DNA from: an uncultured Mollicutes bacterium
GTDB lineage: Bacteria > Bacillota_I > Bacilli_A > RFN20 > CAG-826
Assembly (NCBI GenBank): GCA_900539595.1
Contig: UQCQ01000001.1
Coordinates: forward strand, 172,291-236,290
Direction: 5' to 3'
DNA length: 64,000 bases
The position numbers were made by a program, and so were the translations under genes. Below, one piece after another: positions 3,902 to 36,786 of this stretch. The notes beneath the pieces are model-generated. The model worked only from the letters and a program-made list of their open reading frames with translations, was not told the origin of the DNA and made no database searches. The number at the start of each line of letters is the position of its first letter. Position 1 is the stretch's first letter.

Positions 3902-4071
3902 ATCAATCTCCAGTAGTATTTTAACATAAATTTTTTTGGGACAAATATTTTTGTGTAAAAATTTATAGAGAAAAGCATGCTTATCAATTAACACAAATCA
4001 ATTTATGATAAATGAATTTGTGCTATTTTATAAATCGTTAATCTTAGCATCAAGCCAATGACCTAAAATAG

Positions 4072-11512: not shown

Positions 11513-11557
11513 CTATTCCCGTTGTATTCCTCGATTAAGCGACGTCGCCCTTAAAAC

Positions 11558-18536: not shown

Positions 18537-19939
18537 CTTTTTTCCTCCTTCCTGCAGATCTCGAATTCCTTCTCTCGGAAGCCGTTCTGCGCGTAATAGT
18601 CATTCCTGAATGTCACCGTATAGCACATGTCGTCGTATTCAGAATAAAGTTCCAGCATCAGCATGAGGAACTGTTTCTCCTTCGTATCCTGATCGATATC
18701 CTTAGAGGAGACTTTGTTTCTATCTCCCAGCACCTCGGAGGCAAACTCGTTGACCTTTTCCTTAGAGAAGGCATCCTCATCGAATAAATGAGCTTCTTCT
18801 TTCTGGATTTCCTCATCAGAGACATTGGGTATCTCACTTGGAGAATAGGTGATTTTCTCTTTATCGAAGCTTCTGGAGTATGTGGACCGGTCATCGATCT
18901 GGATCGTCGAATAAATCCCCACCACATCCTCGAAACTCTCTTTCGGATCTGCTTTGGCAAGAGCCTTCAAGGCAGAATTCAGAAGCCCATTGACATCCCT
19001 TCTAGTATTGATGAGGAACTTCAGTCTTGCCAAGGCTGAATTATGGAATTTCATGTTCCGGCGATCGATGAGCGAGACGAAGTCGTTCACAGACTCGAAT
19101 TTGGCGATGCAGTCGTCCAGCCCGTCGGCGACGGATTTCTCTAGTTCTTTGTACTTCTCGCCGGTCAGGCCACTGGTGTGGGTGGCAAAGCTATCGACGA
19201 TGCGCTCGAAATCCTCTCTGTTGTAACGAAATGCTCTTAGCTTCACCAGGATCTCCGACGTATACTTTGAAGGATTGTCTTTCCCCTTCAGGCTGTTGAA
19301 GGCAGTCAGGACGACCTGGTCTTGGTATTTGTATAGCAAGGTATCCAAGACTTCCTCTGGGGTGATATCCGGCCGGTTGATCATCTCCTCAATGAAACGC
19401 CGGATGGTCGAACTCAGCCCTTGAAGGCTGTTGAACAGATCGACAGTGTTCTTTTCTATTTGCTCAAGGCGGGCTTTCGCCTCATTGAACTCAAACGTCT
19501 GAAGAAGAGAATAGACCGTGTAGAAATAACCGGTGTACTCCAAGGGACGATCCTGCTGCGAAACGATTTCATGGAAAACCTGAAGTAGTTTCAAGGCGTT
19601 GTCGTTCAAGGAGTAGGCGACCGTGAACTGATGAGTCTCGTCCGGGTCCTCTTCGAGCCAGCCGGCCTTCTTGAACTGCTTGATTTTGAGAACAGCTTTG
19701 TCTTTAGCGCTTTTGGTTGCGATGTCTTCCCCTTCCTCGTCTTCTAAGCTGCCGAAATCCCGTGACTGGATATAGGCCGTTAAGTCATCAATCAAGTCAT
19801 CCCTAGAAATGGTCTGCCGTCTCTCGCCTTTGGTGAAAAGGTCGTAAATCACCGAAAGAAGGTCGTAATTGGCATTGCGATCTTCTCGGGAGAATACGGT
19901 GAAGATTCTTGGGTTCAGGATTTCAAACAGCTGATTCAT
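18533..19939 (-). CDS. jetA: Wadjet JetA (MksF-like, DUF3375-type)
   Basis: 468-aa first gene of the operon, with a 4-bp overlap onto jetB. Assigned by operon position and size; no catalytic motif is expected. Confidence 0.55.
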   Translation of the reverse strand: MNQLFEILNPRIFTVFSREDRNANYDLLSVIYDLFTKGERRQTISRDDLIDDLTAYIQSRDFGSLEDEEGEDIATKSAKDKAVLKIKQFKKAGWLEEDPDETHQFTVAYSLNDNALKLLQVFHEIVSQQDRPLEYTGYFYTVYSLLQTFEFNEAKARLEQIEKNTVDLFNSLQGLSSTIRRFIEEMINRPDITPEEVLDTLLYKYQDQVVLTAFNSLKGKDNPSKYTSEILVKLRAFRYNREDFERIVDSFATHTSGLTGEKYKELEKSVADGLDDCIAKFESVNDFVSLIDRRNMKFHNSALARLKFLINTRRDVNGLLNSALKALAKADPKESFEDVVGIYSTIQIDDRSTYSRSFDKEKITYSPSEIPNVSDEEIQKEEAHLFDEDAFSKEKVNEFASEVLGDRNKVSSKDIDQDTKEKQFLMLMLELYSEYDDMCYTVTFRNDYYAQNGFREKEFEICRKEEKR

Positions 19940-20615: not shown

Positions 20616-20933
20616 CTATTTAAGGCGTGCGGACGCATCGGAATTATTGTTTTCACTTGCGGAACTTTGTTCGTTCGCGTTGTTTATGGCTGTGCAAATT
20701 TTCTCTATTAGTCCCTTGAATCTATCAAAAATGATTTTGTCATTTTCCGTTAAATGTTCTTTGCCGATTACATTGATTTCAACTTGCTCATTGATTGGTA
20801 CTGATTTAAAGATAAAATCATATAAATCTTTACCAGTAACCGAGTGATCCTTTGAAATGGAAAACAATTTGCTTTCTTCTTCCATGACTACTAATTCTTC
20901 ATCAATACGTTTAATCTGTAATTGTTTTTTCAT
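20616..20933 (-). CDS. Hypothetical 105-aa protein translationally coupled to the upstream PHP-ATPase gene
   Basis: Its start overlaps the stop of the 815-aa gene by 23 bp. It has the same very low GC content and no recognisable motifs. Confidence 0.5.
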   Translation of the reverse strand: MKKQLQIKRIDEELVVMEEESKLFSISKDHSVTGKDLYDFIFKSVPINEQVEINVIGKEHLTENDKIIFDRFKGLIEKICTAINNANEQSSASENNNSDASARLK

Positions 20934-23358
20934 ATCTTTTCCATCTCTTTCTTAATGAATCTACACCGCCATCTAGATTTTCACTTACTATTTTTAAAAT
21001 ATCTAGATTTTTATCCTGATATTCTAGCGCACCACTTTCTATTTGAAGAACGCCATCTTTTGTATCGTGAAAATAAATCACATTATCAGCATCGAGGTTA
21101 ACAACAAATTGGGGATTATGAGTGACTAAAATGATTTGTTTGTTTTTTGACATTTCTTTGAGGTCTTTTACAACGCTTGCTTTGATACTTGGCTGGGAAA
21201 TGTCATCCTCCGGTTGATCAATAATGTAAATGGTATTTTCTTTGCTATGTGCCAAGATATCTATATATTTAGCCGAATTAAAGCCGGCCGAATAAGTTGC
21301 TGTTACATCCTCTCCTTTTTTGATTATGACTTGTTTTGACTTGAGGGCATTTTCTATTTCGGTATCAATTTTAGCCTTCAATATATCAACTGGATCTTCG
21401 GAGGTGGTTTCATCTTTATCTTTTATGGATGATAAAAATTGATCTTTTGTTAAGCTTTTAAGGTCAAAAATTTTATTTAAGTCTGCTCCTTGTTTCATTA
21501 CATTAGCTAATAACTCTTCGCAAAACGAACTATCATAGAAAGCTTTATTGGAAGCAAAGCGACTTACAAGTTTGACATCGCTTAATTCTGTGTATTTATA
21601 GTCTGGTGTGTATTTTTCAAAAGAAAATCTGAAGACTGTAATTTTTGATTTTTTTCTTAGAATGGTCGAGATTTTGTCGGCAAAATGTTCAGAGGTTGTT
21701 TCGAAGGTTGTCCATTTCGCATCTTTGCTATTTTGAATAGCGCTTTGCTCGGAAATTAAAGAATCAATCGAATCATTAATACAATTTCTAATTTTGTTAT
21801 TCCATTCGATAAGATTCGTTTTACTTGAATATTTCTTTATAAGAGACTCGATATTATTACGCGTTTCAGTCAAAAGTTTTTTATCGACAGGGTCTGTGAT
21901 GAATTTAAGTGCTTCATCGATAGGGGTTAATGTTTTTTTGAGATTGGAGACAATTGATTCAAATGTGGAGCTTTCCTCAAAAGAAAAATCGGGTATTTTC
22001 TTTGGCTGTAAAGAAACTCCAGGAGAAGGTTCTATATTCAAATCGATTGTTTCATTGAAAAAATTAAGAATTTCTTGGTCTAAAGAAAATTTATCTGATA
22101 AAGCCCCATAAAATTTTTGAAAACTATTTTCGAGCTTCTCCTTCAAAACGGAAGAATCTGTTTCGGCTGGTTGGAATTTTTTGATGAGGGGATTGGAAAA
22201 GAATGTACCAGTTTCAAATGAATTTCGAATTTCACCTTGGAAGTCGAATTGAAAATTTAGGTTATTTTTAATTCTATCTATTTTTATGTCTTTGCTTTTT
22301 AGGTAATTGGCATATTCTTTCTTTTTCTTAGGTGTTGCTTTTCCGTCATTTGTCTTTCTATAGTTGGTTAACTCATGAAGAAACATCGATTTTCCTTTTG
22401 AGTTGTCACCTATTATCGCATTTATGCCTCGAGACAAAGGTATGCTGAATTTGTTTCCTTTAATACTATAGTCGAGCGATTCGAGAAAATTGTTCGAATT
22501 ATAAAAGAAAGTATTATTGCGAAGTATCCGAGTGTCATCCGTCAAAGCCATGGCCAGCCCTCTAAATGTTGGCAAGCATTTGAGGAAGGTCGGAGACATT
22601 TCTCCTTCCCTAGCGTTGCATTTGTCATGATGTGGGTAGGCCTCCCATTGATGACAATCAGAGCCGGTGATAAAACGAACCTTTTCGTAGGTTTCATTTG
22701 CTCGTTTCTTAAAGAGGTAGTGAAAGACATGGGTGTTTTCGGTCTTGAATTCATAAGCTTCGAAGTACCCAAAATTTAAAAGCTCATTAAATTTATCCGT
22801 TCCTAAAGCTTTTGCATCAGGTGAGGATTGCTTCTCACTCCCTGGCGAGTTTTTTTGGTGCGCAATTAAGCAAACGTTCATTCCGCTTTTTTGAAGTATG
22901 TCTCGGAAGGTTTTTTCAGCAAACATTTGCAAATTATGGGAATTCTTGGATCCAACAGCATCATAATTTTGGGATTTCAACAACCTTTCCAAGTCTTTTA
23001 CTTTTTCATCGTTTGAATCGTCAAATATTGCTATTACATGAACTTGTTTTGTTGTCACAATGCCTTCATCTTTTGTCTCTATTCCGACAGAGAACTCAAC
23101 GCCGGGAAGGATTTTCTTGAATTCTTTTCCTTCGTGTTCTTTCAAAGCATGGTAAAGGGAATAATCAAAGCAATCATGGTCAGTTATAGCAAACATATCT
23201 ATCGAATTATCTTTGAGCTTTGACAATAAGACTGGGATATTTTTAATCGTTCCGTCCTTTACAAGACTTCCGTCTTTTTTTGATGAAGCTGCTGAATGAA
23301 TATGAAAATCGACTTTTTGGCCTTGCAGAACTATCTTATCCATGATGGCGTCCCCCAT
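20911..23358 (-). CDS. PHP phosphoesterase domain fused to an ABC/SMC-type ATPase; Ppl-like defence protein candidate
   Basis: N-terminal PHP motifs (VDFHIHSAASS..., ITDHDC, further His/Asp ligands). Walker A NAIIGDNSKGKSMFL. C-terminal Walker B IYIIDQPEDDIS and H-loop LVTHNPQFV. 815 aa. Confidence 0.6.
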   Translation of the reverse strand: MGDAIMDKIVLQGQKVDFHIHSAASSKKDGSLVKDGTIKNIPVLLSKLKDNSIDMFAITDHDCFDYSLYHALKEHEGKEFKKILPGVEFSVGIETKDEGIVTTKQVHVIAIFDDSNDEKVKDLERLLKSQNYDAVGSKNSHNLQMFAEKTFRDILQKSGMNVCLIAHQKNSPGSEKQSSPDAKALGTDKFNELLNFGYFEAYEFKTENTHVFHYLFKKRANETYEKVRFITGSDCHQWEAYPHHDKCNAREGEMSPTFLKCLPTFRGLAMALTDDTRILRNNTFFYNSNNFLESLDYSIKGNKFSIPLSRGINAIIGDNSKGKSMFLHELTNYRKTNDGKATPKKKKEYANYLKSKDIKIDRIKNNLNFQFDFQGEIRNSFETGTFFSNPLIKKFQPAETDSSVLKEKLENSFQKFYGALSDKFSLDQEILNFFNETIDLNIEPSPGVSLQPKKIPDFSFEESSTFESIVSNLKKTLTPIDEALKFITDPVDKKLLTETRNNIESLIKKYSSKTNLIEWNNKIRNCINDSIDSLISEQSAIQNSKDAKWTTFETTSEHFADKISTILRKKSKITVFRFSFEKYTPDYKYTELSDVKLVSRFASNKAFYDSSFCEELLANVMKQGADLNKIFDLKSLTKDQFLSSIKDKDETTSEDPVDILKAKIDTEIENALKSKQVIIKKGEDVTATYSAGFNSAKYIDILAHSKENTIYIIDQPEDDISQPSIKASVVKDLKEMSKNKQIILVTHNPQFVVNLDADNVIYFHDTKDGVLQIESGALEYQDKNLDILKIVSENLDGGVDSLRKRWKRYEKTITD

Positions 23359-23519: not shown

Positions 23520-25286
23520 TTAACCTTTAAGTTTAAACTTTTCTTTGAGGTATTTGTTTAAGTTTTTATCGCAGCAGTAAATATACGTTCCCTTCATTCC
23601 TCTAGTCAGAAGAACGAGATAGGAATTGATGATGTCCTCAATCGTTTTGTTGACATCCGTCCCTACTTTTCCATGCTTATCATAATAGGAACTTGGAACG
23701 AATTCGATGATGCCTTTTTCTTTGTTGAAACGGATATCGTTTGAAAAGATGACGCCTGCATAATTCAGATCATATCCCTGGCAGGTGAAAACCGAGCCGA
23801 TAAGCGATACGGATTTCTTATCGGTTGCGAAGTTTTCGTTGATTCCATTCCAACTGTATTTCTTTCCGTCAATCATAAAATCATAGTCCTGGGTGGAATG
23901 GATTCCTTTCTTATCTCGCATGGATTTTGTGAATGGGAAACCATAGCCAGAGACGACTCGGCATAATCCGTCGTATTCCTTGTCTTTTTCCTTTATCGCA
24001 TCCATCATTTCGGCACAGTCGTCGAATATCTTGAAATCGTATCCTGTAGAACGAAAGTCGGGTGCGTTTTCCTTTGTTTCGTTTCGCAGCAACTTCGACC
24101 AATAGGAGATGTAGTCTTCTCCGGCAATGAGCCGGATCTGATGGTTAATCGGATACCAGTTGTTCTTTTTCTCATCCTTCATGGCAAGGAAATCCTTCTC
24201 TGGAACATCGGCACCGGAGGTGGACTGCTTTCGGTCATAGAAAAAGATTGCGACATGTTTCGCCTGCTTCTTGATCCAGTCGAGCTGAGTGGTGTTTACA
24301 TAGTCAGTGAAACCAAGACGATTATCGGCTTGCTTGAACGAGAGATGGCTTGTGGATTTTCCGTATGTGGCGAGGTGGTGAGCTTCGTCTACTAAGACGA
24401 TGTCGTAGCCTTCTTTTCTCTTCGTCAGGTCGACAGGGCTGACGACATCCACGTTTTTCAAGGATGGTATATTCTTGAACACGGACTTCACCGTGTTTCT
24501 GAACTCCGTCATCGGAGCAACGAAGGCGATGCTCGGCTTTGGAAGATTTGCTAGCTCCCGGTTCATCTGCATGTAGCTGATTGTGCTCTCAAGATCCTCG
24601 TAGCTATCGATGTCGGTATAGTCGATTTTCTGGGTGCAGACGTCTGCGATGTATTTGATGAGGGAGACGGCGAGAATCGATTTCCCGGTCCCCGCTCCTC
24701 CTTCTACGACGATGTTTCTCTTCTGCCCAGTTTTCAATGCGTCGGTTATATCAGCAAGGAGTTTTGCTTCAAGGTCATATTGCTCATCTGTAAGCTGTTT
24801 GAATGGTGAGTATTTGAAAATCTTGGAGTTCTCTACTTGTAGGATGGTTTTGTCTGCTAAGCCCTTGTCTCTCAATTGTTTCCAGATTCTCTTGAACAGC
24901 TCTTTGTATAAGGCACGCTGATAGTAGTTGTGGAACTTGGACTGCCCATTGTTCAGGTTTTGGAGCTCATACTTTCCATCTGCGTGCATGTGCTCGATGA
25001 GCATGTTCTCGATATCCAGAATGGCGGATTTGTTGAACATGTCGTTGAAGAGGACGTATTCGTTTATCATTGGCTTTCTTACGGAATTTTCCAGATGCTG
25101 AAGCATACGATTATATGCGCTTGAGGTTTCACCAACGTAGGCAACAGGCTTCTGCCCGTCTTTTCCATCTAAAATATAGACGACAGGCCAGTCGACTCCT
25201 TTGTTTGTGCTCAAAAGAGCCTTTGCGCCGTCTTCGTTGAAGCTGTATGTTCCGATGGTTGTCGTAGGAAGTGCTGTGTGTTCCAT
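23520..25286 (-). CDS. GIY-YIG nuclease domain fused to a DUF2075-type P-loop NTPase (Schlafen-like helicase-related ATPase)
   Basis: N-terminus VVYILDG....AYVGETSSAYNRMLQHLEN (GIY-YIG). Walker A VVEGGAGTGKSILAVSL and Walker B/DEAH IVLVDEAHHL. Confidence 0.65.
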   Translation of the reverse strand: MEHTALPTTTIGTYSFNEDGAKALLSTNKGVDWPVVYILDGKDGQKPVAYVGETSSAYNRMLQHLENSVRKPMINEYVLFNDMFNKSAILDIENMLIEHMHADGKYELQNLNNGQSKFHNYYQRALYKELFKRIWKQLRDKGLADKTILQVENSKIFKYSPFKQLTDEQYDLEAKLLADITDALKTGQKRNIVVEGGAGTGKSILAVSLIKYIADVCTQKIDYTDIDSYEDLESTISYMQMNRELANLPKPSIAFVAPMTEFRNTVKSVFKNIPSLKNVDVVSPVDLTKRKEGYDIVLVDEAHHLATYGKSTSHLSFKQADNRLGFTDYVNTTQLDWIKKQAKHVAIFFYDRKQSTSGADVPEKDFLAMKDEKKNNWYPINHQIRLIAGEDYISYWSKLLRNETKENAPDFRSTGYDFKIFDDCAEMMDAIKEKDKEYDGLCRVVSGYGFPFTKSMRDKKGIHSTQDYDFMIDGKKYSWNGINENFATDKKSVSLIGSVFTCQGYDLNYAGVIFSNDIRFNKEKGIIEFVPSSYYDKHGKVGTDVNKTIEDIINSYLVLLTRGMKGTYIYCCDKNLNKYLKEKFKLKG

Positions 25287-25590
25287 GTTTTGCGTTTTTT
25301 CTTTGGAAAAGCTTTAGATCCCCAAAGGTCAATTGCGGTATTCGAATGTGATTTCAAAGACGCTTATATGATATCACAAATGTTTTCAGAACTTTTTGGA
25401 AAGGATAAACTCGTAGGAGAATTGTGAAAAACGATGAAAATGGATGAAAATAGCCTGTCAAGTCCTGAAATTCACTATTTTCGAAGCTATAATATAAGTA
25501 GATTAAAGGGCTTTGCCCCATTTGCTTACGATCATGGAGTACGTAAGGAAACAAGACTCCTTAACAAAAGAAAGAAGGAGGTTTTTCTTT

Positions 25591-25743
25591 ATGAACTATG
25601 AGTACACAGTCCTATCCGAGAACAATTATGGAGTGATGCAACAGGAACTCAACAGCTGCGGAAGATATGGGTGGAAACTTGTCAATGTCGTCTGGGACAA
25701 CGACAATGCCTGTTCGGTTGCTGTGATGATGTGGGGGAAATAA
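25591..25743 (+). CDS. DUF4177-like small protein (50 aa), divergent from the DUF2075 gene
   Basis: Consensus RBS AAGGAGGT 8 nt before the ATG at 25591. MNYEYTVLSE....GRYGWKLVNVV resembles DUF4177 (YEYKV....GWELV). Confidence 0.45.
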   Translation: MNYEYTVLSENNYGVMQQELNSCGRYGWKLVNVVWDNDNACSVAVMMWGK

Positions 25744-26014
25744 TCTTTTCCAGCTCTTTTATGTTTCATCTTGTGCACTAGGACTGTCTAGAAACCTAGC
25801 CTTTTTTCGTTTGGTTATAATGTTGCATATTCCTGCCGACAATGTTATATTGTTTATATGGAATTTTAGGATGATATTGGTTTGGCGAAGTTGCTTTTCC
25901 GTGCCATATGCACTCCTGGTTCCTGGGTCGAGCCGTTCAATCAGGGACTTATTGATGACGCTCCTTTAGCAAAGACATGCCTTCCATCGTTTGATGGGAG
26001 AATAGGGGGAGGAA

Positions 26015-29000
26015 ATGGCAGAGTACATAGACAACAAGACCAAGCTTCTTGGTGACGATTTGAAGAAGGAACTTAGCGAATCATCCCAAGTGGAAATCAT
26101 CGCCTCGGTCTTTACTATTTACGCTTTTGAATCCCTGAAAGAAGAACTCGAAAAAGTCTCGGAACTCCGTTTTATCTTTTCTTCGCCTGCCTTTGCCCAG
26201 AAGATGCTAAATGGTGTAGACAAGAAACCCAAGGAATTCATGATATCCGAGGCGTTCTCCAAGACGTCCCTTTATGGGACTTCTTTTGAGTTGAAGCTTA
26301 AGAATCAGCTTACCCAGAAGGCGGTTGCCAGAGAATGCGCAGACTGGATTCGAAAGAAAGTGCGCTTCAAGGCAAACGTGTCCGGTCAGGACGCCAACAG
26401 CTTCATCGCTGTGAACAAACCTTATGATCCTAGCTCTACCATTGCGTATAGCCCTATCGCCTCTGGCTTTTCTAGTGACTCCCTTGGCTATTCGAAGACA
26501 AAGCAGCTTTTCAGCATCACCGTGAAGATAGGGGCCAACGAAGGCGCGTTGTCCTTTTCTAAGAATTTCGAGGATTTCTGGAATGATTCTGAGAAAACAC
26601 AGGATGTCACCGATGCCGTTATCGATTATATCGGAACAGCCTATAAGGACAATTCGCCGGAATTCCTCTATTACGTCACTTTATACAATATCTTCAAGGA
26701 TTTCCTTGATGATATCCTTTCAGAAGACAATATGCCCAATGACGCCACAGGTTATAAGGATTCCCTTATTTGGAAGAAGCTTTACTCCTTCCAAAAAGAC
26801 GGGGCCATTGGCGTCATCAACAAGCTTGAAAAATACAACGGATGCATCCTTGCCGATTCTGTCGGTTTAGGTAAGACATTCACCGCGTTGGCGGTCATGA
26901 AATACTACTCTTCCCGGAACAAGAACATCCTCGTCCTTGCCCCAAAGAGACTCTCCAACAATTGGAACCAATACAAAGACAATCTGAAGACGAACCTTTT
27001 CTGGAATGATCATATCCGCTATGACGTTCTCTACCATACAGATTTGGGAAGATCCAAGGGTTATTCCAATGGCCATGATTTATCTATATTCAACTGGGAG
27101 AACTATGATCTTCTTATTATCGATGAATCCCACAACTTCAGGAATGCCCAACATTTCCGCGGAAGAGAGACGAGATATGAATTCCTGATGAATCATGTCA
27201 TCAAGCCAGGCGTGAAGACCAAGGTTCTCATGCTTTCGGCAACTCCGGTAAACAACCGCTTTACAGATCTTAGAAACCAGTTGGCCCTTGCCTACGGAGA
27301 CAATCAGGAAGAGTTCAACGAAAAACTGGATACCAAGAAAAACGTGGACGTCATCCTCAGAAACGCCCAGCAGACTTATAACGAATGGTGCAAGCTTCCG
27401 AAAGCGGAACGCCATACCAAAGATCTTATGAACAGTTTGGATATGGATTTCTCGGTGCTTCTGGACAACGTCACTATCGCAAGATCGAGAAAGCACATCA
27501 CGAAATACTATGATATGAGTGAAATCGGCCATTTTCCAAAGAGAAAGAAACCTATCTCACTTTATACGGATATTGCCAAGGACGAAGACAGAATCGCCTA
27601 TGATGATTTGTTCAAGACGCTGAAACAATTAAGACAGGCAGTCTACGCCCCGATGAATTACATCCAGCCGAGCAAACTGGTAAAATACGAGAACATGTAC
27701 GACACTACCGGAGTTGCCGGCAATCGCCCTGATCTCAAGCAGATCAACCGTGAGCTCGCCCTTCAGAACCTGATGACCGTGTCCCTCCTCAAACGACTTG
27801 AATCCTCCGTGGATGCGTTCCGAATCACCTTAAGCCATGTGAAGAATGTCAACAAGAACACTCTTTCGGCTATCGAAAATTTTGAGAGACTCCATATTTC
27901 AAGTCTCAAAGGCGAATTCGCCAACATCAATCCTGACGATTTCGACGAAGAGGATATGGATAACGACGAGAAGTGGGGGACCACAGGCAAGATCACCATC
28001 GACTTCGCCGATATGGACCTGCTTTCCTTCAAGAACGACATCACACGCGATATCGAAATCCTTTCCGGTTTATTGGAACTCATGGAATGGATCACTCCTT
28101 CCAAGGATTTGAAACTGAACAAGCTTGTCTCCATCATCGAGGACAAGATTTCGAATCCAATCAATCCTGGTAACCGGAAAGTGCTTATCTTTTCCGCATT
28201 CGCCGATACGGCAAACTACCTTTATGAAAACCTGTCAGTCCATTTCAAGGAAAAGTATGGAATGAATAGTGCGGTCGTTACCGGAAGCAAAACGAACAAG
28301 TCTACTATTGCTTCTCTTCATGACACCGAGGAAATCCTCACCTTGTTCTCTCCGCTTTCCAAGGAAAAAAGGGTCAAGATGCCGAATGATAATCGTAACA
28401 TCGATATTCTTATTGCTACGGACTGTCTTTCCGAAGGACAGAACCTGCAGGATTGTGATGAGTGCATCAATTACGATATCCATTGGAATCCAGTGAGAAT
28501 CGTCCAGAGATTCGGCCGTATCGACCGAATCGGCTCCAAGAACGACTATATCCAGCTCGTCAATTTCTGGCCGAATATGTCTTTGGATGAATACATCAAC
28601 CTGACCAACCGTGTCGAAAATCGTATGTCCATCGTCGATGCCACGGCAACCGGGGATGACAACATCATCTCCGAAGAGAATGTAGAGCTTGATTACCGCA
28701 AGGAGCAGCTCAAGAAACTCCAGAACGGCGAACTCCAGGATCTGGAGGATATCGACGGCTCCATTACGATTACGGATCTTGGATTGAATGACTTTAGAAT
28801 GGACCTCGCTAACTATATCCGTGAGAAAGGTTATCCTGATGGTGTTCCCTATGGCTTATATGCCGTCACAAAGGAAGACAAGGAAAAAGGAATCGTTCCT
28901 GGTGTGATCTTTGCCTTGAAGAATACCAATGACAAGGTATCCATCCACACGAAGAACAGACTCCATCCTTATTATCTTGTTTATCTCGATATGGATGGAA

Positions 29001-29296
29001 ACGTTGTCTATGACTATACCCAGGTGAAGAAAATACTCGATGTGATGCGGACAATATCCAAGCATCATCCGGAACCGGACCGCTCCCTCTGTTCTTCTTT
29101 TAACAAGGAAACGAAGGATGGAACCAAAATGGAGAAGTATTCGGATCTCCTCGAGGCGTCTGTCGCCTCGATCATCGACGTGAAGAAACAGGATGATTTC
29201 GCTTCCCTGCTATCCGATGGAAGCGATGTTCTTTATGACGGAGGCATAAAGGGGTTAGATGACTTCCAGCTCGTCAGCTTCTTTGTGATCAGATAA
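26015..29296 (+). CDS. SNF2-family helicase with a ~250-aa N-terminal extension of unknown function
   Basis: Motif I LADSVGLGKTFTALAV, motif II LLIIDESHNFRN, motif III LMLSATPVNN, motif VI QRFGRIDRIGS. It is the first gene of a four-gene operon ending in a type III R-M pair. Confidence 0.8.
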   Translation: MAEYIDNKTKLLGDDLKKELSESSQVEIIASVFTIYAFESLKEELEKVSELRFIFSSPAFAQKMLNGVDKKPKEFMISEAFSKTSLYGTSFELKLKNQLTQKAVARECADWIRKKVRFKANVSGQDANSFIAVNKPYDPSSTIAYSPIASGFSSDSLGYSKTKQLFSITVKIGANEGALSFSKNFEDFWNDSEKTQDVTDAVIDYIGTAYKDNSPEFLYYVTLYNIFKDFLDDILSEDNMPNDATGYKDSLIWKKLYSFQKDGAIGVINKLEKYNGCILADSVGLGKTFTALAVMKYYSSRNKNILVLAPKRLSNNWNQYKDNLKTNLFWNDHIRYDVLYHTDLGRSKGYSNGHDLSIFNWENYDLLIIDESHNFRNAQHFRGRETRYEFLMNHVIKPGVKTKVLMLSATPVNNRFTDLRNQLALAYGDNQEEFNEKLDTKKNVDVILRNAQQTYNEWCKLPKAERHTKDLMNSLDMDFSVLLDNVTIARSRKHITKYYDMSEIGHFPKRKKPISLYTDIAKDEDRIAYDDLFKTLKQLRQAVYAPMNYIQPSKLVKYENMYDTTGVAGNRPDLKQINRELALQNLMTVSLLKRLESSVDAFRITLSHVKNVNKNTLSAIENFERLHISSLKGEFANINPDDFDEEDMDNDEKWGTTGKITIDFADMDLLSFKNDITRDIEILSGLLELMEWITPSKDLKLNKLVSIIEDKISNPINPGNRKVLIFSAFADTANYLYENLSVHFKEKYGMNSAVVTGSKTNKSTIASLHDTEEILTLFSPLSKEKRVKMPNDNRNIDILIATDCLSEGQNLQDCDECINYDIHWNPVRIVQRFGRIDRIGSKNDYIQLVNFWPNMSLDEYINLTNRVENRMSIVDATATGDDNIISEENVELDYRKEQLKKLQNGELQDLEDIDGSITITDLGLNDFRMDLANYIREKGYPDGVPYGLYAVTKEDKEKGIVPGVIFALKNTNDKVSIHTKNRLHPYYLVYLDMDGNVVYDYTQVKKILDVMRTISKHHPEPDRSLCSSFNKETKDGTKMEKYSDLLEASVASIIDVKKQDDFASLLSDGSDVLYDGGIKGLDDFQLVSFFVIR

Positions 29297-29298
29297 CC

Positions 29299-30006
29299 AT
29301 GTTCATATTACCGAGTAAAGCGTATGTTCATCGCGAATACCCGCTTAAGGATGTCTATAAGGCGATTGGGGCAGACAAGAAGCTGATAGAGGCTTCCAAG
29401 AACATCAAGAAGATCTACATCGAATACGTCTTCAACCAGAAGAACACTAACCTTCAGGTGAAGTCGGTCAAGGAAATCCATTTCTATAAGATAGAGCTGA
29501 CAGACTTCCACGTGCCGGAGGACTTCATCCTGGCACTGGACAAGAAGGATAAGTTCCAGGTGGTGTTCATTATCACGTGTGAGGACTTGGAGAAGGATAT
29601 GACCGCTCCCAAGAGAATCAATGGGGAGGAGGTTACAAAAGCCAAATACATCCAGTCCGAATGGATGAAGATAGGGGATGATGTCAAGATACCTCCTGCC
29701 GATACTTTGGATGAACTATACTGCTTCCTCTATGGAGCCTTCAACGAATATAAGCCCTTCAAAGGTGAACTGCTTGAGAATTATATTAAAAGATGTAATG
29801 AACTGAGGAAACTCGATTATCAGATCAGTAAGACCACGATGGCAATCCAGAATGAAAGACAGTCGAAGAAGAGAATCGAATACAATCACAATCTGAACGA
29901 ATACAAAGAAAGAAAATCCTATCTATTAAACCAAAGGAGAATGGAAAATGCAGAAATTATCAGCGCAATCGAAGGATTTGTCTCAGGAGAACATAAAGAA
30001 GGTTGA
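29299..30006 (+). CDS. Hypothetical 235-aa protein between the SNF2 helicase and the methyltransferase (possibly DUF4391-type)
   Basis: Its start lies 3 bp after the SNF2 stop, and its end overlaps the mod start by 59 bp. The family assignment is inferred from the recurring helicase / DUF4391 / MTase / Res synteny, not from motifs. Confidence 0.45.
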   Translation: MFILPSKAYVHREYPLKDVYKAIGADKKLIEASKNIKKIYIEYVFNQKNTNLQVKSVKEIHFYKIELTDFHVPEDFILALDKKDKFQVVFIITCEDLEKDMTAPKRINGEEVTKAKYIQSEWMKIGDDVKIPPADTLDELYCFLYGAFNEYKPFKGELLENYIKRCNELRKLDYQISKTTMAIQNERQSKKRIEYNHNLNEYKERKSYLLNQRRMENAEIISAIEGFVSGEHKEG

Positions 30007-31849
30007 GGAATTATTCCCCAACTGCGTGACCGAAACCTATGACCAGGACGGCAACCTCGTCAGAAGCATCGACTTCGACATCCTCCGCCAGGACCTCTCC
30101 GACCATGTCGTGGAAGGCCCGAAGGAGAGATACCAGTTCAACTGGCCTGGAAAGAGAGATGCCATCCTTTTAGCAAACGCACCGACCACGAACACATTGA
30201 GACCTTTGCCAGAGAAGTCCGTCAATTTCGAGAATACGAAGAACGTCTATATCGAAGGAGATAACCTCGAGGCTCTGAAAATCCTCAGAGAGACCTACAT
30301 GGGCAAGATCAAGATGATCTACATCGACCCACCGTACAATACAGGTAATGATTTCGTCTATAAAGATGACTTCAAACAGTCTACTGAAGAATATTTGAAA
30401 TCATCCGGCGACATCGACGAGGAAGGCAACCGCATGGAAGTCAACGGAGAATCCAACGGAAGATTCCATTCAGACTGGCTCAATATGATGTATCCAAGAC
30501 TCGTTCTCGCAAGAGACTTGCTCACGGATGATGGATTGATCTTCATGAGCATCGATGACAATGAGCAGGACAATTTAGTTCGTCTAGGAAAAGAAATATT
30601 TGGCGAATCGAATTTTGTGGCGACTTTTCCTTGGAGAAAACGCACTGCGAAATCTGATGTGCCTTTTGGTGTTTCGCAGGATTTTGAATGGGTTCTCTGC
30701 TTTGCTAAATCGAGTCAAACAAGAGTTAGTATTGAAGGAAAAGAAAGAAAATACTTTGAAACGGATGATTTTCCAGGGCGTCCCTGGCGAATTCATGATT
30801 TGACTAAGCAAACCACAGCGTCTGAACGACCTAACAGTTACTTCACTATTGTGGATAAAAAAAGAAATATATCTTACCCTGCAAACCCAAATAGAACATG
30901 GTGTGTCTCTAAAGACACTTTTTCCCAATATGATGCTGAAAATCGAATCGTCTATCCTGGAGACTATCCTTTTTTGAAAATATCGCAGCCTGTTCTAAGA
31001 TATTGGAAAGAAGACGATCAGAAAAAAGATGGCGAATTATTCGGACGTGTTGCATTAAGCACATTATTTCCACAAAGTGTAGGAATGTCCCAAGATGGAA
31101 GTAAAGATGTTTTTAAATTATTCAATTCCAAAATATTCAGCTTTCCAAAGCCGGTCTCATTGATAAAGTATTTAATATCTGCTGCTACGCAAGAAGACGA
31201 TTTAATCGCAGATTTCTTTTCCGGATCCGCCACCACCGCAGAAGCCGTTTTCAAGCAAAACCTTGAAGATAATGGAAACAGAAAATTTCTTTTGATACAG
31301 ATGCCGGAACACACCGGTGATACTGAAGCCTTTAAAAATGGTTTTTCAGATATTTGCAGCCTTGCTGAGGAAAGAATACGTCGTGCAGGAAAAGTTATCA
31401 AAGAGGAAAATCTTCTTACTATAGAGGGATTTGATTTTGGATTTCGTGTATTTAAGACCGATTCTTCCAATATGAAGGATGTTTTGAGTACTCCAAAAGA
31501 AACTCAGCTGAGTCTTCTTGAAAATGCTGAGTCTGCTATTAAACCTGACCGAAGTCCTCTTGATCTTGTCACTCAAGTTATGCTTCAGCTGGGCATGACT
31601 CTCGATGCTGATATAAAAATTGGAAAGTTTGCGGGCGGAGGGCAATTCTATGCCGTTAACGGCAATGATCTCGTCTGCTGCTTTGATAAGAACATTTCCG
31701 AATCTAACATTGAGGAACTGGCTCGGATACAGCCTTTAAACGTTGCATTCAAAGATGATTCCTTTGCTTCTGATCAGGATGAAGTCAACTGTGAGCAGAT
31801 ATTTAAGACTCTTTCTCCGATTACCGGTAAAAATATCTTTGTTCTTTGA
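29948..31849 (+). CDS. mod: Type III restriction-modification Mod subunit (beta-class N6-adenine DNA methyltransferase)
   Basis: Motif IV MIYIDPPYNTGNDF precedes motif I DFFSGSATT (beta order). 633 aa, with a 4-bp overlap onto res. Confidence 0.8.
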   Translation: MQKLSAQSKDLSQENIKKVEELFPNCVTETYDQDGNLVRSIDFDILRQDLSDHVVEGPKERYQFNWPGKRDAILLANAPTTNTLRPLPEKSVNFENTKNVYIEGDNLEALKILRETYMGKIKMIYIDPPYNTGNDFVYKDDFKQSTEEYLKSSGDIDEEGNRMEVNGESNGRFHSDWLNMMYPRLVLARDLLTDDGLIFMSIDDNEQDNLVRLGKEIFGESNFVATFPWRKRTAKSDVPFGVSQDFEWVLCFAKSSQTRVSIEGKERKYFETDDFPGRPWRIHDLTKQTTASERPNSYFTIVDKKRNISYPANPNRTWCVSKDTFSQYDAENRIVYPGDYPFLKISQPVLRYWKEDDQKKDGELFGRVALSTLFPQSVGMSQDGSKDVFKLFNSKIFSFPKPVSLIKYLISAATQEDDLIADFFSGSATTAEAVFKQNLEDNGNRKFLLIQMPEHTGDTEAFKNGFSDICSLAEERIRRAGKVIKEENLLTIEGFDFGFRVFKTDSSNMKDVLSTPKETQLSLLENAESAIKPDRSPLDLVTQVMLQLGMTLDADIKIGKFAGGGQFYAVNGNDLVCCFDKNISESNIEELARIQPLNVAFKDDSFASDQDEVNCEQIFKTLSPITGKNIFVL

Positions 31850-34800
31850 GGAATTTAATTATGAAATTCATATTTAAAGAACAGGATTACCAGATATCGG
31901 CTGTGAAAGCTGTCACGGATGTTTTTGCTGGACAACGTTATCAGTCGCTTTCTCAATACACACGTGACTTGGGAAAACTTTCACCGAAAGAAGCTGGCAA
32001 GAATCAGCAATTAAGACTTGACTTAGGGCTTAATAACAAAAGCGACCTTTTGGTGGCCAAAGGCAACGATAATGATGATTTAGCCATAGGTTTTGCTAAT
32101 GCGCCAATTCAGATTGATGATCAACAGGCCTTGAAAAATATTCAAACCATTCAGATGAAATCCAATTTATCGGTGGATGAGCATCTTTCCAAAGTTCTTA
32201 GCCCTTTGGACTTAGATGTGGAGATGGAGACCGGAACGGGTAAAACCTATGTCTATATCCGCACAATGTTTGAGTTGAATAAACTTTACGGCTTTTCTAA
32301 ATTCATCGTCATGGTTCCATCCATTGCTATTCGTGAAGGTGTCAAGAAGTCATTCGAACAGACTCAGGAACACTTCATGTCCATCTACGGGAAGAAAGCC
32401 CGTTTCTTTATTTATAGCAGTGCAAACCTGGCTGAAATCGATAACTTCGCCAAAGATAGTTCCATCGAAGTGATGATCATCAACATCCAGGCTTTCAATA
32501 CGCACGGCAAGGACGGACGAAAGATTTATGAGGAACTCGATGAATTCCAGTCCAGAAGACCGATCGACGTCATCAAGAAGACTAGACCGATTCTGATTCT
32601 TGATGAGCCACAGAAGATGAGTGGAGACGCTACCAAATCTTCCATAGGTGAATTCAATCCACTTTTCACCATTAACTACTCGGCTACGCACAAAGAAAAA
32701 CACAATCTTGTATATGTTCTTGATGCCTTGGACGCCTATAACGCGAAGCTTGTTAAGAAAATCCAGGTAAAAGCAGTCAAGGTCGATAATGTCAAAGGAA
32801 CCCAGGCTTTCTTATATTTGGAGGATATCATCCTTCGAGGTGATAAAGATCCTCAGGCGAAAATCAGCTTCTTCCGCAACACCAAGCAAGGAATCAAATC
32901 CTATACACAGCTGCTTAGTCGCCAAGACAACATCTATGAACTATCCGGTTTTGATGCCACAAGCCAATTATCGGTCTATAAGAACAACTATATCGTCGAT
33001 GAAATCGATTATGTATCAAATACCGTCAGATTGCTGAACGGCATTGTTTTGCATGCCGGAGAAGTGATTGGGGATAACTCGGAAGATTTGATAAGAAGAA
33101 TACAAATCCGTGAGACTATCGCTTCCCATTTGGAAAAGGAGCAGGATAATTTCCATAAAGGAATAAAGACCCTTTCTCTTTTCTTCATCGACGAAGTCAA
33201 AAAATATAGAGACTATTCTCAGCCCGATGAAAAAGGCGAATATGCCAAGATTTTCGAGGAAGAATACAACTGGGCGGTTACTGAATTTTGCAATAACCTC
33301 ATCAACACAGATGAGGAATATAAGAAGTATCTTCAGCTATTTACTCCTGATCAGGTCCATAACGGCTATTTTTCCATCGATAAGAAAGGACATGCAATCG
33401 ATTCCAAAGCGGATCGCAAGACAGGTTTATCCGATGATCAATCCGCCTATGATTTGATTTTGAAGAACAAGGAACGTCTTCTTTCCTTCGATGAGCCCAC
33501 TCGTTTCATATTCTCCCATTCTGCCTTACGGGAGGGATGGGACAACCCGAATGTCTTCCAAATCTGCTTCTTAAGACATACCAAGAGCGAAACTCAGAAA
33601 CGGCAGGAAGTGGGTCGTGGTCTTCGTATCGCCGTAGATAAGAACGGAAACCGTCAAGACGCCACTGTTTTAAGTGATTTCTTCGGCGTGAATAAGCTTA
33701 CTGTCATTGCTAATGAGGATTACGAGTCATTCGTAAAAGGATTGCAGTCTGAAATCAAGGAAGTCCTCTATAAGCATCCGACCAAGGCGGACAAGGACTT
33801 CTTCTTTGGCAAGCCGATCACGAACGCAGAAACCAATGCTGAAACCAACATTACGGATGCTCAGGCTAGAAGCATTTACCAGTATTTGGTGAAAAACGAT
33901 TATGTGGATGCTTCTGACAATCTTACAGAGAAATTCCGTGACGATGTGGATAAGTCCATATTAGTTGACATGCCGGAAGATTTGAAACCTTATCAGGCAT
34001 CCATCATCGAACTTGCAAACAGCATCCGCAAAGGCGGAAATATTGAAATCGAAAACGGCAAGAAACCTAAGGTTCTCGAAAACAAAGTCAATCAGAATTT
34101 CGATAGAAAGGAATTCAAAGAGCTTTGGAACGCCATCAACCATAAGTACTCCTATCGCGTTTCCTTCAGCTCTGACGAATTAGTTAAGAATTGCATCGAA
34201 AGAATCAAGAAAGAATTGGAAGTTTCTAAAATAACCTATTCGGTCGATGTCGGTGAGCAGAAAGAAACTATTGATCAGAAAGATATTGATAATTCCTTCC
34301 AAAGAGGTGCCGATAGTGGAAAGAAAGAAAAACTCCATGTTGCTGCTCCTTCTTCTGCAAAATACGATCTTGTTCACGAAATAGCTCAGCGCACGCATCT
34401 TACTCGAAGAACGATTGTCCGTATTCTCGTCGGGACAAAAGAAAAGCTTCAGATGTTCCGTAATAACCCGGAAGAATACATCACAAAGATTAGTAATCTG
34501 ATTGATGATGAAAAGGCCTCTGTGATTGTTCGTGGCATCCGCTATGACAAATTGACTGACAAATTTGACGATACCATTTTCAACGAAAAGCACGCCGATT
34601 TTGATAGTCAGAAGGCTTTCAAATCCAAAAAGGCAATCCAGGATTATGTCTTTGTCGACGGTACCGCCAAAAACGGCGAATCCAATGAGATGAAGTTTGT
34701 CAAAAATCTTGAACAGCAAGAAAACGTCAAGGTATACGCAAAAATGCCTAAAGGTTTTTATATTCCTACTCCGATGGGAAGATATTCTCCTGACTGGGCC

Positions 34801-35028
34801 ATCGTCTATGAATCCAATGGCGAAAAAGGCATTTATTTCATTGCTGAAACGAAAGGAAACTTGAGTTCCTTATCTTTGCGAAAGGTTGAGGAATCCAAGA
34901 TTGAATGCGCGAAGAGCCTTTATAACCAGCCCAAATCCAAGGTCAATTATGGCTTAGTACATACCTATGATGATCTTGTCACGAAGGTGATGGACATTTT
35001 GGAAAAACACAACGGAGAGCAATCATGA
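31846..35028 (+). CDS. res: Type III restriction enzyme Res subunit (SF2 helicase plus C-terminal PD-(D/E)xK nuclease)
   Basis: Walker A VEMETGTGKTYV and DEPQ box ILILDEPQKM. C-terminal YSPDWAIVYE...IAETKG nuclease motif. 1060 aa. Confidence 0.8.
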   Translation: MRNLIMKFIFKEQDYQISAVKAVTDVFAGQRYQSLSQYTRDLGKLSPKEAGKNQQLRLDLGLNNKSDLLVAKGNDNDDLAIGFANAPIQIDDQQALKNIQTIQMKSNLSVDEHLSKVLSPLDLDVEMETGTGKTYVYIRTMFELNKLYGFSKFIVMVPSIAIREGVKKSFEQTQEHFMSIYGKKARFFIYSSANLAEIDNFAKDSSIEVMIINIQAFNTHGKDGRKIYEELDEFQSRRPIDVIKKTRPILILDEPQKMSGDATKSSIGEFNPLFTINYSATHKEKHNLVYVLDALDAYNAKLVKKIQVKAVKVDNVKGTQAFLYLEDIILRGDKDPQAKISFFRNTKQGIKSYTQLLSRQDNIYELSGFDATSQLSVYKNNYIVDEIDYVSNTVRLLNGIVLHAGEVIGDNSEDLIRRIQIRETIASHLEKEQDNFHKGIKTLSLFFIDEVKKYRDYSQPDEKGEYAKIFEEEYNWAVTEFCNNLINTDEEYKKYLQLFTPDQVHNGYFSIDKKGHAIDSKADRKTGLSDDQSAYDLILKNKERLLSFDEPTRFIFSHSALREGWDNPNVFQICFLRHTKSETQKRQEVGRGLRIAVDKNGNRQDATVLSDFFGVNKLTVIANEDYESFVKGLQSEIKEVLYKHPTKADKDFFFGKPITNAETNAETNITDAQARSIYQYLVKNDYVDASDNLTEKFRDDVDKSILVDMPEDLKPYQASIIELANSIRKGGNIEIENGKKPKVLENKVNQNFDRKEFKELWNAINHKYSYRVSFSSDELVKNCIERIKKELEVSKITYSVDVGEQKETIDQKDIDNSFQRGADSGKKEKLHVAAPSSAKYDLVHEIAQRTHLTRRTIVRILVGTKEKLQMFRNNPEEYITKISNLIDDEKASVIVRGIRYDKLTDKFDDTIFNEKHADFDSQKAFKSKKAIQDYVFVDGTAKNGESNEMKFVKNLEQQENVKVYAKMPKGFYIPTPMGRYSPDWAIVYESNGEKGIYFIAETKGNLSSLSLRKVEESKIECAKSLYNQPKSKVNYGLVHTYDDLVTKVMDILEKHNGEQS

Positions 35029-35219
35029 ACTATGCCGAGAAACTAAAAAAAATCCGTGAAACTTTACTATTATCTCAGGATGAATTGGCCAAAGAACTTA
35101 GTGTTACTTTTGCAACCGTGAATCGTTGGGAAAACGGACATCATGAGCCATCGCTAAAAGGAAAGAAGGCCATCAGAGATTACTGCAAGAAAATGCACAT
35201 TAAATTGGAAAAGGATTAA
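35025..35219 (+). CDS. XRE-family helix-turn-helix protein (64 aa)
   Basis: LSQDELAKELSVTFATVNRWENGHHEPS is a canonical Cro/CI-type HTH. Its start overlaps the res stop by 4 bp. Confidence 0.6.
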   Translation: MNYAEKLKKIRETLLLSQDELAKELSVTFATVNRWENGHHEPSLKGKKAIRDYCKKMHIKLEKD

Positions 35220-36159
35220 GATTGCTGATTTTATCGTTCTTCAAAAAATCTAAAACAAAATCTCTCCAATTTTGGTACCAATACCATTGTTTACCGACAA
35301 AGACACCATAGTGCTTTTCTGGATTTCTTGCATCATATTTTTTCCATAGCTTTGTGTGTTGATCTAGATTGAAAGTCGGAAAACCATTCTCTTTAACGAA
35401 ATTGACTATGGCACTAGGCAAAAACTTTGGCCTTTCTGTTTCTTTTATCAATAAATTTATTGCGTTGCTTTCCTCACTTCCTGACTTGACAAACCTTATT
35501 GCCTGGTCGGCTTGGTTTGGCTTGTTAACGTTTACAGGTACGAAACATACTCTATAAGAATATTTAGAATTTTCTAATATTTCGCTTGAGAGTGATTTTT
35601 CATAGGAAGAGATAATACTTGTGATGTTGTCAGCTGTCTTTTTGTTGATTAAGCCATTTTTTTGTTCTGGATTCAATGATGAAAATTGTATTGCCATACA
35701 CATAGTTTTATCTAATCCGAATTTGACGCCGAACAATTGCTTGATATAGTAATTGAAGTTGATGCTGCAAGCTTGGATTTTGGCACTTATTAATGAATCG
35801 TTTGTTTCGTAATAGCTATGCTCGATTTTGTTTCTAATTTGGATAAGAAGTTCTAAATTTTTCGCAGTAGGTTCATCTATTGGCGATTTGGTTTCTTTGA
35901 TGCTTCGCGATAAATCCCACTCTCTTTTCCGACCATCTATATATTCGTATTTGTATTTCCCATTGTCTTGAGACTTTCTATAGTAATAGCAAATATGATT
36001 TTTGTAGTAATACGCATGGAATAAATAAGTCCAGGCAATTTCTGAATTTACAATAAATAGTTCGCTTTTAAATGTGATTGTTGGATTGTTGTAGATTGCA
36101 ACTGCTGACATCATTGCTTGTCTAGCTTTTTCGACCAATGTTTTCCATTTGGCTTTCAT
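35200..36159 (-). CDS. HEPN-like protein (RNxxxH motif; Abi/DUF4145-like), 319 aa
   Basis: LELLIQIRNKIEHSYY carries an Rx4H HEPN-type motif. It is convergent with, and overlaps by 20 bp, the HTH gene at the 3' end of the R-M operon. AT-rich. Confidence 0.45.
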   Translation of the reverse strand: MKAKWKTLVEKARQAMMSAVAIYNNPTITFKSELFIVNSEIAWTYLFHAYYYKNHICYYYRKSQDNGKYKYEYIDGRKREWDLSRSIKETKSPIDEPTAKNLELLIQIRNKIEHSYYETNDSLISAKIQACSINFNYYIKQLFGVKFGLDKTMCMAIQFSSLNPEQKNGLINKKTADNITSIISSYEKSLSSEILENSKYSYRVCFVPVNVNKPNQADQAIRFVKSGSEESNAINLLIKETERPKFLPSAIVNFVKENGFPTFNLDQHTKLWKKYDARNPEKHYGVFVGKQWYWYQNWRDFVLDFLKNDKISNLNPFPI

Positions 36160-36490: not shown

Positions 36491-36701
36491 TCCAAGTCCA
36501 TTTCGGGCAGTGTGAAGTTCACAAAAGCGGAAATGGAGCAGGCGAAGGAAGCTGTGGTGAAGAACACGAAGAAGGGACAAAAAATAGTGGCCGGTTCCCA
36601 CGATTGCGGAAGCCGGCCTTTCTTACGGCTTTTTACAAGGGGAATTGACGCTTATCAAAAAATCTTCGGACCCATTGAATCCGAAGACTGTTTTTACTGT
36701 G

Positions 36702-36786
36702 TGGTGCGGGCAACAGGACTTGAACCTGCACGGAGTTACCCATTAGATCCTAAGTCTAACGCGTCTGCCAATTTCGCCATGCCCGC
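36702..36786 (-). tRNA. tRNA-Leu (anticodon TAG)
   Basis: The reverse complement folds as a class II tRNA: acceptor GCGGGCA/TGCCCGC, anticodon stem TTAGA/TCTAA with loop CTTAGGA, a long variable arm, T-arm GCAGG-TTCAAGT-CCTGT, and CCA encoded. Confidence 0.8.

Follow-up and report, generated by a model that had tools for sequence, protein, structure and literature searches.

The window analysed here, 64,000 nucleotides of contig UQCQ01000001.1 (positions 172,291 to 236,290 of the forward strand; assembly GCA_900539595.1) from an uncultured Mollicutes bacterium of the lineage RFN20/CAG-826, carries a cassette in which genes for a SNF2-family ATPase and a DUF4391 protein precede the mod and res genes of a type III restriction-modification (R-M) system. 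Gene order across genomes and correlated divergence of the proteins both indicate that the four large genes are inherited together as a single conserved unit and do not lie side by side by chance. 'Augmented type III R-M', as a sequence-only reading of this DNA had tentatively described the locus, is therefore a fair description. The chances are about even that the type III R-M enzyme of the locus works with an SNF2 translocase module that is accessory to it and acts irrespective of sequence. This analysis establishes, at the level of sequence motifs, that the SNF2 protein pairs a dead phospholipase D (PLD) domain with a live motor.

Five open reading frames (ORFs) lie tightly packed on the forward strand, where the sequence-only reading had placed them: the SNF2-family ATPase gene (26015-29296, 1093 aa; dead PLD domain, SNF2 motor, and conserved C-terminal region), the DUF4391 gene (29299-30006, 235 aa), mod (29948-31849; a 633-aa beta-class N6-adenine methyltransferase with N6_N4_Mtase and MTase_III matches), res (31861-35028; 1055 aa from its ATG), and a gene for a 64-aa XRE-type helix-turn-helix (HTH) protein of the HTH_3 family (35025-35219). 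The spacing between the first two genes, given earlier as 3 bp, is a gap of 2 nt, and GGGGGAGG provides a good Shine-Dalgarno sequence ahead of the SNF2 ATG. The 59-nt overlap between the DUF4391 gene and mod is genuine, and AGGAG precedes the mod ATG. The 4-nt overlap proposed for mod and res exists only if res begins at TTG 31846 (the longest ORF, about 1060 aa); most likely res begins at ATG 31861, leaving an 11-nt gap, because a GAGGAA Shine-Dalgarno sequence lies 7 nt upstream of this codon and homologues align from residue 5-6. At the distal end, the HTH gene start overlaps the res stop codon (ATGA), as had been described, and GGAG lies 8 nt upstream of the HTH gene. The mod gene stands directly 5' of res in one operon with no terminator seen between them, and the terminator scan found no convincing forward-strand terminator within the operon.

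The cassette was surveyed with the N-terminal domain of the SNF2 protein, a family-specific probe that was used in place of DUF4391. A pattern scan of genomes seeded with a close-clade DUF4391 alignment gave 45 matches and no true relatives, wider DUF4391 alignments are too divergent for patterns, and a DUF4391 profile built from 73 sequences gained little in a word-indexed search of proteins, recovering only 17. A tblastn search of plasmids with the DUF4391 protein of the window found no match; hidden Markov models (HMMs) detect DUF4391 in the same plasmids, so the tblastn miss reflects a protein that diverges too fast. The SNF2 N-terminal probe matched at least 585 species-representative genomes, from Bacillota, Bacteroidota, Pseudomonadota, Actinomycetota, Verrucomicrobiota, Acidobacteriota, Spirochaetota, and other phyla, and 127 IMG/VR contigs.

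Synteny was counted in 80 loci from genome contigs and 80 from viral contigs, considering only loci with an intact SNF2 gene and with at least 0.9 kb of downstream sequence for DUF4391 or at least 7 kb for Mod and Res. A DUF4391 gene adjoins the SNF2 gene in 63/64 genome and 60/61 viral loci; the sequence-only reading had named a lack of synteny for the 235-aa ORF as grounds for refutation, and this outcome is not observed, the ORF following intact SNF2 in 123 of 125 loci. DUF4391 and Mod are both present in 53/53 genome and 45/46 viral loci, and Res as well in 50/53 and 40/46; Mod thus follows the SNF2-DUF4391 pair in 98 of 99 loci. In the shortfalls that were examined, the missing res had been displaced past the fetched DNA by passenger genes, or the locus had decayed. 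Spacing between the SNF2 and DUF4391 genes clusters at -3 to +13 nt across loci, and gene order is maintained on plasmids of Providencia and Paraburkholderia, where Res is only 33-35% identical. The cassette is mobile, occurring on plasmids, in islands, and at prophage edges; plasmids of E. coli, Listeria, Enterococcus, Acinetobacter, and Lactococcus carry it, and the E. coli version is present in 10 of 5,426 complete E. coli genomes. An identical SNF2 protein occurs in Erysipelotrichaceae metagenome-assembled genomes (MAGs), and the window probably stems from a genome of this family. On the E. coli plasmid pLAO18 (L087; NZ_OP242248.1), the cassette of roughly 9 kb spans positions 3154-12215, and a LAGLIDADG homing-endonuclease gene lies directly downstream of res on the opposite strand (12517-14856); strain GPEC996 also carries the E. 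coli cassette.

In about one third of loci, same-strand passenger genes separate the DUF4391 gene from mod or mod from res; they encode Schlafen AlbA_2+HATPase_c_4 proteins, the DUF1016/YhcG nuclease, RhuM, Fic, KAP NTPase, AAA_13, and UvrD-like proteins; examples among loci L008-L086 are found at L012 15920-17575, L052 13313-14407, L067 19449-20495, L019 15921-17042, L018 7357-8724, and L059 13992-16214. Genes of these kinds are frequent cargo within R-M operons, and the cassette is a docking site for further candidate defence genes.

Pairwise divergences correlate among all four proteins. The correlation between SNF2 and Res (r=0.66) is close to that between Mod and Res (r=0.69), which are an obligate pair. 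SNF2 and DUF4391 are the most tightly correlated (r=0.84), and their partial correlation remains 0.72 when Res is controlled for, whereas that of DUF4391 with Res falls to 0.20 when SNF2 is controlled for; DUF4391 is thus the partner of SNF2. Median identity is highest for SNF2 (0.56), followed by Res (0.50), and lowest for DUF4391 (0.26). That the locus merely holds two independent systems that have come to lie together is very unlikely, since co-divergence across the two halves matches that of the obligate pair in strength, order and strand are fixed across phyla and also on plasmids with unrelated surroundings, and the SNF2-DUF4391 pair has no effector domain with which to act alone. Mere co-location would fit the position of the cassette in a dense defence island, the passengers that may separate its halves, and the ability of Mod-Res to stand alone.

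Dependence between the halves runs one way. The accessory pair hardly ever occurs in the absence of Mod-Res (accompanied in 98/99 loci), but a complete 14.3-kb plasmid of S. hominis (L089, NZ_CP046300.1) carries Mod-Res only. The Res of this plasmid is 78% identical to the Res of a lactococcal four-gene cassette and is nested within the four-gene clade, which points to secondary loss of the accessory pair. That lactococcal Res comes from the L. cremoris plasmid pUC047A (L088), where the SNF2 gene is split by IS712 (5291-10654) and the downstream genes are intact. Divided genes were also seen elsewhere, SNF2 as two ORFs at L005 5567-8844 and mod as ORFs of 428 aa and 186 aa at L001 10641-12484.

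The same asymmetry bears on a different role for the pair, that of a safety or control module in which SNF2-DUF4391 strips Mod-Res from host DNA and alleviates restriction after DNA damage or in a new host. The pair is dispensable for keeping Mod-Res, the cassette is mobile and a mobile R-M system needs establishment control, a dead nuclease joined to a live motor suits a 'remover', and the SNF2 core is like that of RapA and the chromatin remodellers; SNF2 remodellers such as RapA and Mot1 comparably remove proteins from DNA. Such a role is nonetheless unlikely: classical type III systems do without a module of this kind, some clades already carry separate regulators (XRE or WYL), and a motor of 1093 aa, better conserved than Res (0.56 versus 0.50), is costly compared with the small C-proteins.

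The assignment of the first gene to the SNF2 family is secure, as SNF2-rel_dom, Helicase_C, and ResIII all score above their Pfam cut-offs. The motor core (approximately residues 256-860; 26780-28594, forward strand) has intact ATPase motifs, with GLGKT at 284, DESH at 370, SATP at 408, and QRFGRIDRIG at 831 representing motifs I, II, III, and VI; these columns are the most conserved of the protein (0.9-0.95 in 38 sequences), and the core resembles RapA and chromatin remodellers. N-terminal to it, residues 1-263 (26015-26803, forward strand) match no Pfam model, yet are conserved at 44-60% identity over hundreds of proteins. This region, which the sequence-only reading had left unassigned, can now be identified as a domain of PLD fold that is catalytically dead. 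Catalysis in the PLD superfamily requires a histidine nucleophile. The SNF2 protein of the window has no histidine before residue 333, the catalytic HxKxxxxD motif is found in none of 73 homologues from genome copies, and in these homologues the column inferred to correspond to the histidine holds R, K, T, or Q beside a conserved F-K-S-N-x-T. The domain has therefore been inactivated family-wide and retained under selection, plausibly for dimerisation, by analogy with SauUSI, or for DNA contact.

The SNF2 protein would work much as PLD-helicases of the SauUSI or MtsD type do, but loss of the defining catalytic motif separates it from them. In the type IV enzyme SauUSI the PLD domain is an active nuclease and the protein works alone on modified DNA; here HKD is absent throughout the family, the motor is of the SNF2 type, and the gene is tied to an R-M pair whose action is blocked by modification. 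The protein aligns end to end with the PADLOC 'HKD+Snf2' model (E=9e-120), a match that reflects architecture and does not imply an active HKD. Motors of the SNF2 or PLD-SF2 (superfamily 2) kind are already known from methylation-based defence, in MANTIS MtsD and in the HKD+Snf2 effector of BREX-related (BR) type 2. The effector of BR type 2 is an HKD+Swi2/Snf2 protein in which HKD is the primary nuclease, and the DUF3780 protein of that system is a small alpha+beta protein without definitive homologues (PMC12839542). MANTIS/Gao_RL, which we take to be the BR type 2 of that study (an equation not made in the source papers), was considered as an assignment for the cassette and rejected, as there is no DUF499 AAA+ ATPase, no DUF3780, and HKD is dead.

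The 235-aa protein is a member of the DUF4391 family, as had been guessed: over residues 4-204 it scores 79.3 bits with PF14335, for which the cut-off is 29.9. With 364 representatives at 50% identity, the family is of moderately large size. The predicted structure is confident (pLDDT 88.6) and consists of an alpha/beta domain (approximately residues 1-130) and, after it, a long helical hairpin (159-229); no structural relative of the model was detected. The literature search on DUF4391 yielded only a table entry and a mention that is probably a typographical error for DUF7941, and nothing functional. A Clostridia MAG (L010 5249-6779) has two tandem DUF4391 ORFs after SNF2, of 298 aa (E=1e-22) and 214 aa (E=8e-65). 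An apparent PglZ-DUF4391 fusion, P0079 (795 aa; PglZ 463-616, DUF4391 606-783), was not used as evidence; its PglZ is truncated relative to that of BREX-1, its DUF4391 part lacks the first ~30 residues, its relatives are ordinary BREX-1 PglZ proteins, and it is probably the result of a deletion or an assembly join.

Mod and Res proved to be the canonical type III pair that had been recognized from sequence. Mod matches the PADLOC MTase_III model (E=4e-208), EcoP15I Mod (E=4e-56), the Mod of PDB 6K0W (4e-70), and N6_N4_Mtase, and has the beta-class order, with DPPY at 127 before motif I, DFFSGSATT, at about residue 421; the string 'FAGGG' at residue 561 does not represent motif I. No phase-variable repeat was found in mod. 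Res matches the PADLOC REase_III model (E=6e-292), EcoP15I Res (E=3.5e-68), ResIII, DEAD, and RE_endonuc, and combines a helicase (GTGKT at 130, DEPQ at 253) with a C-terminal nuclease (PD...ETK at ~982-1003, numbered from the TTG start). Against NCBIfam PRK15483, the enterobacterial type III Res equivalog, Res scores 374.1 bits, below the cut-off of 564, and thus belongs to a distinct Res subfamily (best PADLOC model PDLC03647). In homology of Mod and Res, beta-class motif order, SF2 motifs, C-terminal PD-(D/E)xK, and the order mod then res, the locus agrees with the classical type III systems EcoP15I, EcoP1I, and StyLTI; these consist of two genes, whereas in the present subfamily SNF2 and DUF4391 are also conserved upstream in nearly all members. 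Type III enzymes hemimethylate a short asymmetric site, and to cleave they require ATP and two unmodified sites in inverse orientation.

The target recognition domain (TRD) of Mod (approximately residues 225-400; 30620-31147, forward strand; boundaries approximate) is hypervariable, with column conservation of 0.26-0.38 versus 0.6-0.8 in the flanks and a median pairwise identity of 0.20 versus 0.49 for the Mod core. Divergence of the TRD is uncorrelated (r about 0) with that of SNF2, DUF4391, or Res, from which it follows that specificity resides in Mod alone and that the accessory pair acts regardless of target sequence. This independence counts against a model in which the pair is itself an anti-phage effector, a second line or guard like AbiR that blocks replication by translocating on unmodified DNA or fires when a phage inhibits Mod/Res, with Mod methylation preventing toxicity to the host: as SNF2, DUF4391, and Res do not co-vary with the TRD, there is no obvious way in which the pair alone would read methylation.

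Lactococcal AbiR does offer a close likeness. The N-terminal part of AbiRiii can be superimposed on SauUSI (7CLG), its C-terminal part resembles Snf2, and AbiR requires the LlaKR2I methylase, in the absence of which it is toxic (PMC13064643); AbiR thus shares a SauUSI-like domain fused to an Snf2 ATPase, linkage to an R-M system, and a need for the R-M methylase. A guard of this kind would also suit a pair almost never found without Mod, and a DUF4391 that, like many phage-facing sensors, is the fastest-evolving of the four proteins (median identity 0.26). The AbiR partners, though, are sigma-70-like and ParB-like and not DUF4391, the top PADLOC matches show no close AbiR homology, and Res is kept as tightly as Mod, which dependence on a methylase only does not predict. 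An AbiR-like guard accordingly has a low probability.

The other close functional analogy, MANTIS, is likewise built from four components, namely an ATPase, a small protein specific to its family, a specificity-setting N6-adenine methyltransferase, and a helicase-nuclease; in the cassette the last two are a canonical type III Mod/Res pair. In MANTIS, MtsA and MtsB load or activate MtsC, and two ATPases and a small co-factor are coupled to hemimethylation and cleavage. With the same four-part logic (ATPase, small co-factor, hemimethylating methyltransferase, helicase-nuclease), SNF2 and DUF4391 might load or activate Mod such that modification and restriction need all four proteins, and the 59-nt overlap of the DUF4391 gene with mod in the clade of the window suggests translational coupling. 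EcoP15I Mod is an autonomous methyltransferase. Mod of the cassette is a standard type III protein homologous to it, with its own TRD; the ATPase is of the SNF2 and not the ORC/Cdc6 type of AAA+, DUF499 and DUF3780 are not present, and, were Res active and the pair required for methylation, the S. hominis plasmid that carries Mod-Res only would kill its host. A loader is on these grounds very unlikely.

The sequence-only reading had further suggested coupling of the DISARM or BREX type, and membership of either system does not hold. DISARM DrmD and BREX BrxHII likewise place an SNF2 motor beside an adenine methyltransferase, and their HMMs partially match the helicase C-lobe; the DrmD score is 149.5 bits, far below the cut-off of 610, and the core partner genes are not among the scanned neighbours. 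No separate DrmA, DrmB (DUF1998), or DrmC gene was found there, and DrmA gave no signal beyond a weak, partial alignment with the SNF2 helicase C-lobe. PglZ, BrxC, and PglX are not among the scanned genes from 5.2 to 38.5 kb, and BrxH models match the SNF2 protein in the helicase C-lobe only.

In the mechanism that we favour at about even odds, a type III enzyme with an accessory translocase module, Mod would read its target through its own hypervariable TRD and methylate host DNA, and Res would be the helicase-like switch and sole nuclease. The accessory module would consist of the SNF2 double-stranded DNA translocase, with a SauUSI-like PLD domain that lacks catalysis and through which the protein is probably dimerised, and the fast-evolving DUF4391. 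Having no effector of its own, the pair depends on Mod-Res; it would act on DNA marked as unmodified by Mod/Res and, where a classical type III enzyme slides passively, add ATP-driven translocation or the removal of protein roadblocks, making restriction stronger or broader. Physical association, the translocase role, and a benefit to restriction are in each case what comparative genomics leads us to infer.

Several points weigh against this reading. Contact of SNF2 or DUF4391 with Mod, with Res, or with one another is presumed from the same comparisons, and that the pair boosts rather than restrains restriction is a guess. A common history of transfer could by itself produce correlated divergence. 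In at least one lineage the R-M core stands on its own, so the pair is not needed to maintain the core, nor perhaps to restrict, and passengers in about a third of loci show the cassette halves to be separable. The position of the missing histidine was mapped to column 117 by secondary structure, without a residue-level structural alignment, and the modelled fold of DUF4391 yields no clue to function. The literature search found no experimental study of the four-gene family.

A bolder version is that the cassette represents a widespread and hitherto unrecognised class of ATP-dependent restriction, in which a small adaptor of new fold links a true double-stranded DNA translocase to a type III enzyme, and which is an evolutionary intermediate between classical R-M and BREX, DISARM, and MANTIS. 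This is tentative and, in our judgement, rather doubtful. If true, it would change the rules for type III enzymes, for example by relaxing the need for two inverted sites or by allowing attack on protein-coated or linear phage DNA.

Upstream of the cassette, the sequence-only reading had proposed a sigma-70 promoter, and both hexamers are present on the forward strand (25823-25851; TTGCAT at 25823-25828 and TATATT at 25846-25851, separated by 17 nt), with TGT before the -10 making it an extended -10 element. The candidate, which is a prediction only, is below the scan threshold, and promoter-like sites are not enriched in the region (29 found versus 22.5 expected from shuffles). The block AATGTTATATTnnTTATATGGAA and the GTTG of the -35 are kept in a related locus (L003) despite otherwise diverged upstream DNA; the conserved block over the -10 is 23 bp long and could also contain an operator, and no convincing palindromic operator (C-box) for the XRE protein was found at the promoter.

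The 64-aa protein matches Pfam HTH_3 (E=4e-11) and would act as a clade-specific transcriptional controller. It is not part of the system core: the gene is confined to the clade of the window (close relatives L001 and L003-L007), shifts between positions after res and before SNF2, and is replaced in other clades by WYL or unrelated genes. No conserved fifth gene was found upstream, where neighbours are mixed and WYL occurs in only 4 of 67 loci. In divergent proteobacterial cassettes, an unannotated gene of 78-85 aa abuts the SNF2 start (L090 2540-2776; L091 2687-2944), and in other cassettes a WYL (BrxR-like) or RelB/DinJ gene stands at the cassette 5' end; the plasmid matches H66, H70, H88, H89, and H61 are among the loci that show this variety. 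The 5' end of the operon seems to recruit small regulators that differ from clade to clade.

The cassette lies within a dense defence island (13.5-36.2 kb). A complete Wadjet system occupies 13491-19939 on the reverse strand, with JetA at 18533-19939, JetB/DUF4194 at 17892-18536, the SMC-like ATPase JetC at 14705-17914, and JetD at 13491-14708. It is followed on the same strand by a gene for an 815-aa TrlF/Ppl-like ATPase (20911-23358), which has no Pfam match, matches the PADLOC models for Ppl and PDC-M49A, gives sub-threshold NCBIfam matches to TrlF-family ATPases, Spaf_1101 AAA-like ATPases, and anti-phage Ppl, and has the lowest GC content of the window (~0.35). Next, also on the reverse strand, is a Schlafen group 3/DUF2075-type (SLFN) helicase (23520-25286; PADLOC PDC-S14) with a weak GIY-YIG-like N-terminus; a related MAG has a copy of 72% identity beside its own version of the cassette, on the opposite flank (L001 16679-18454), and this helicase seems to travel with the island.

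Between the SLFN helicase and the cassette lies a small forward-strand ORF (25513-25743) without a Pfam match, which has an internal ATG near 25592 after a strong AAGGAGG. In L004 and L005, a 52-aa ORF with a weak DUF4177 match lies upstream of the cassette, with a minus-strand gene between it and SNF2. Downstream, a DUF3644/PADLOC PDC-S19 candidate defence gene (35200-36159, reverse strand) is convergent with the XRE gene, the 3' ends overlapping by 20 nt; this HTH/DUF3644 arrangement (95% identity) is shared by L003-L005 but absent from L006 and L007. At its end the island is bounded by a tRNA-Leu gene (36702-36786) and a strong terminator with a 13-bp stem (36661-36689), both on the reverse strand; the tRNA-Leu is a likely integration hotspot, and no integrase was identified among the scanned genes.

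The literature search returned no description of the four-gene arrangement; several older key papers lay outside the search, so prior mention is possible. The genes are already annotated in public genomes, generically only: on an E. coli IncFIB plasmid they are labelled 'SNF2-related', 'DUF4391 domain-containing', 'site-specific DNA-methyltransferase', and 'DEAD/DEAH box helicase', with the system unnamed, and defence-finding tools score the cassette simply as 'type III R-M'. The textbook type III system has two genes, and here is a whole subfamily with two further conserved genes. Native E. coli copies exist, so that the effect of the extra motor on restriction is directly testable. If the motor does alter restriction, predicted barriers to phage therapy and plasmid transfer would change in these hosts, DUF4391 would gain a function, and the cassette would provide a tractable link from simple R-M to multi-ATPase methylation-based systems.

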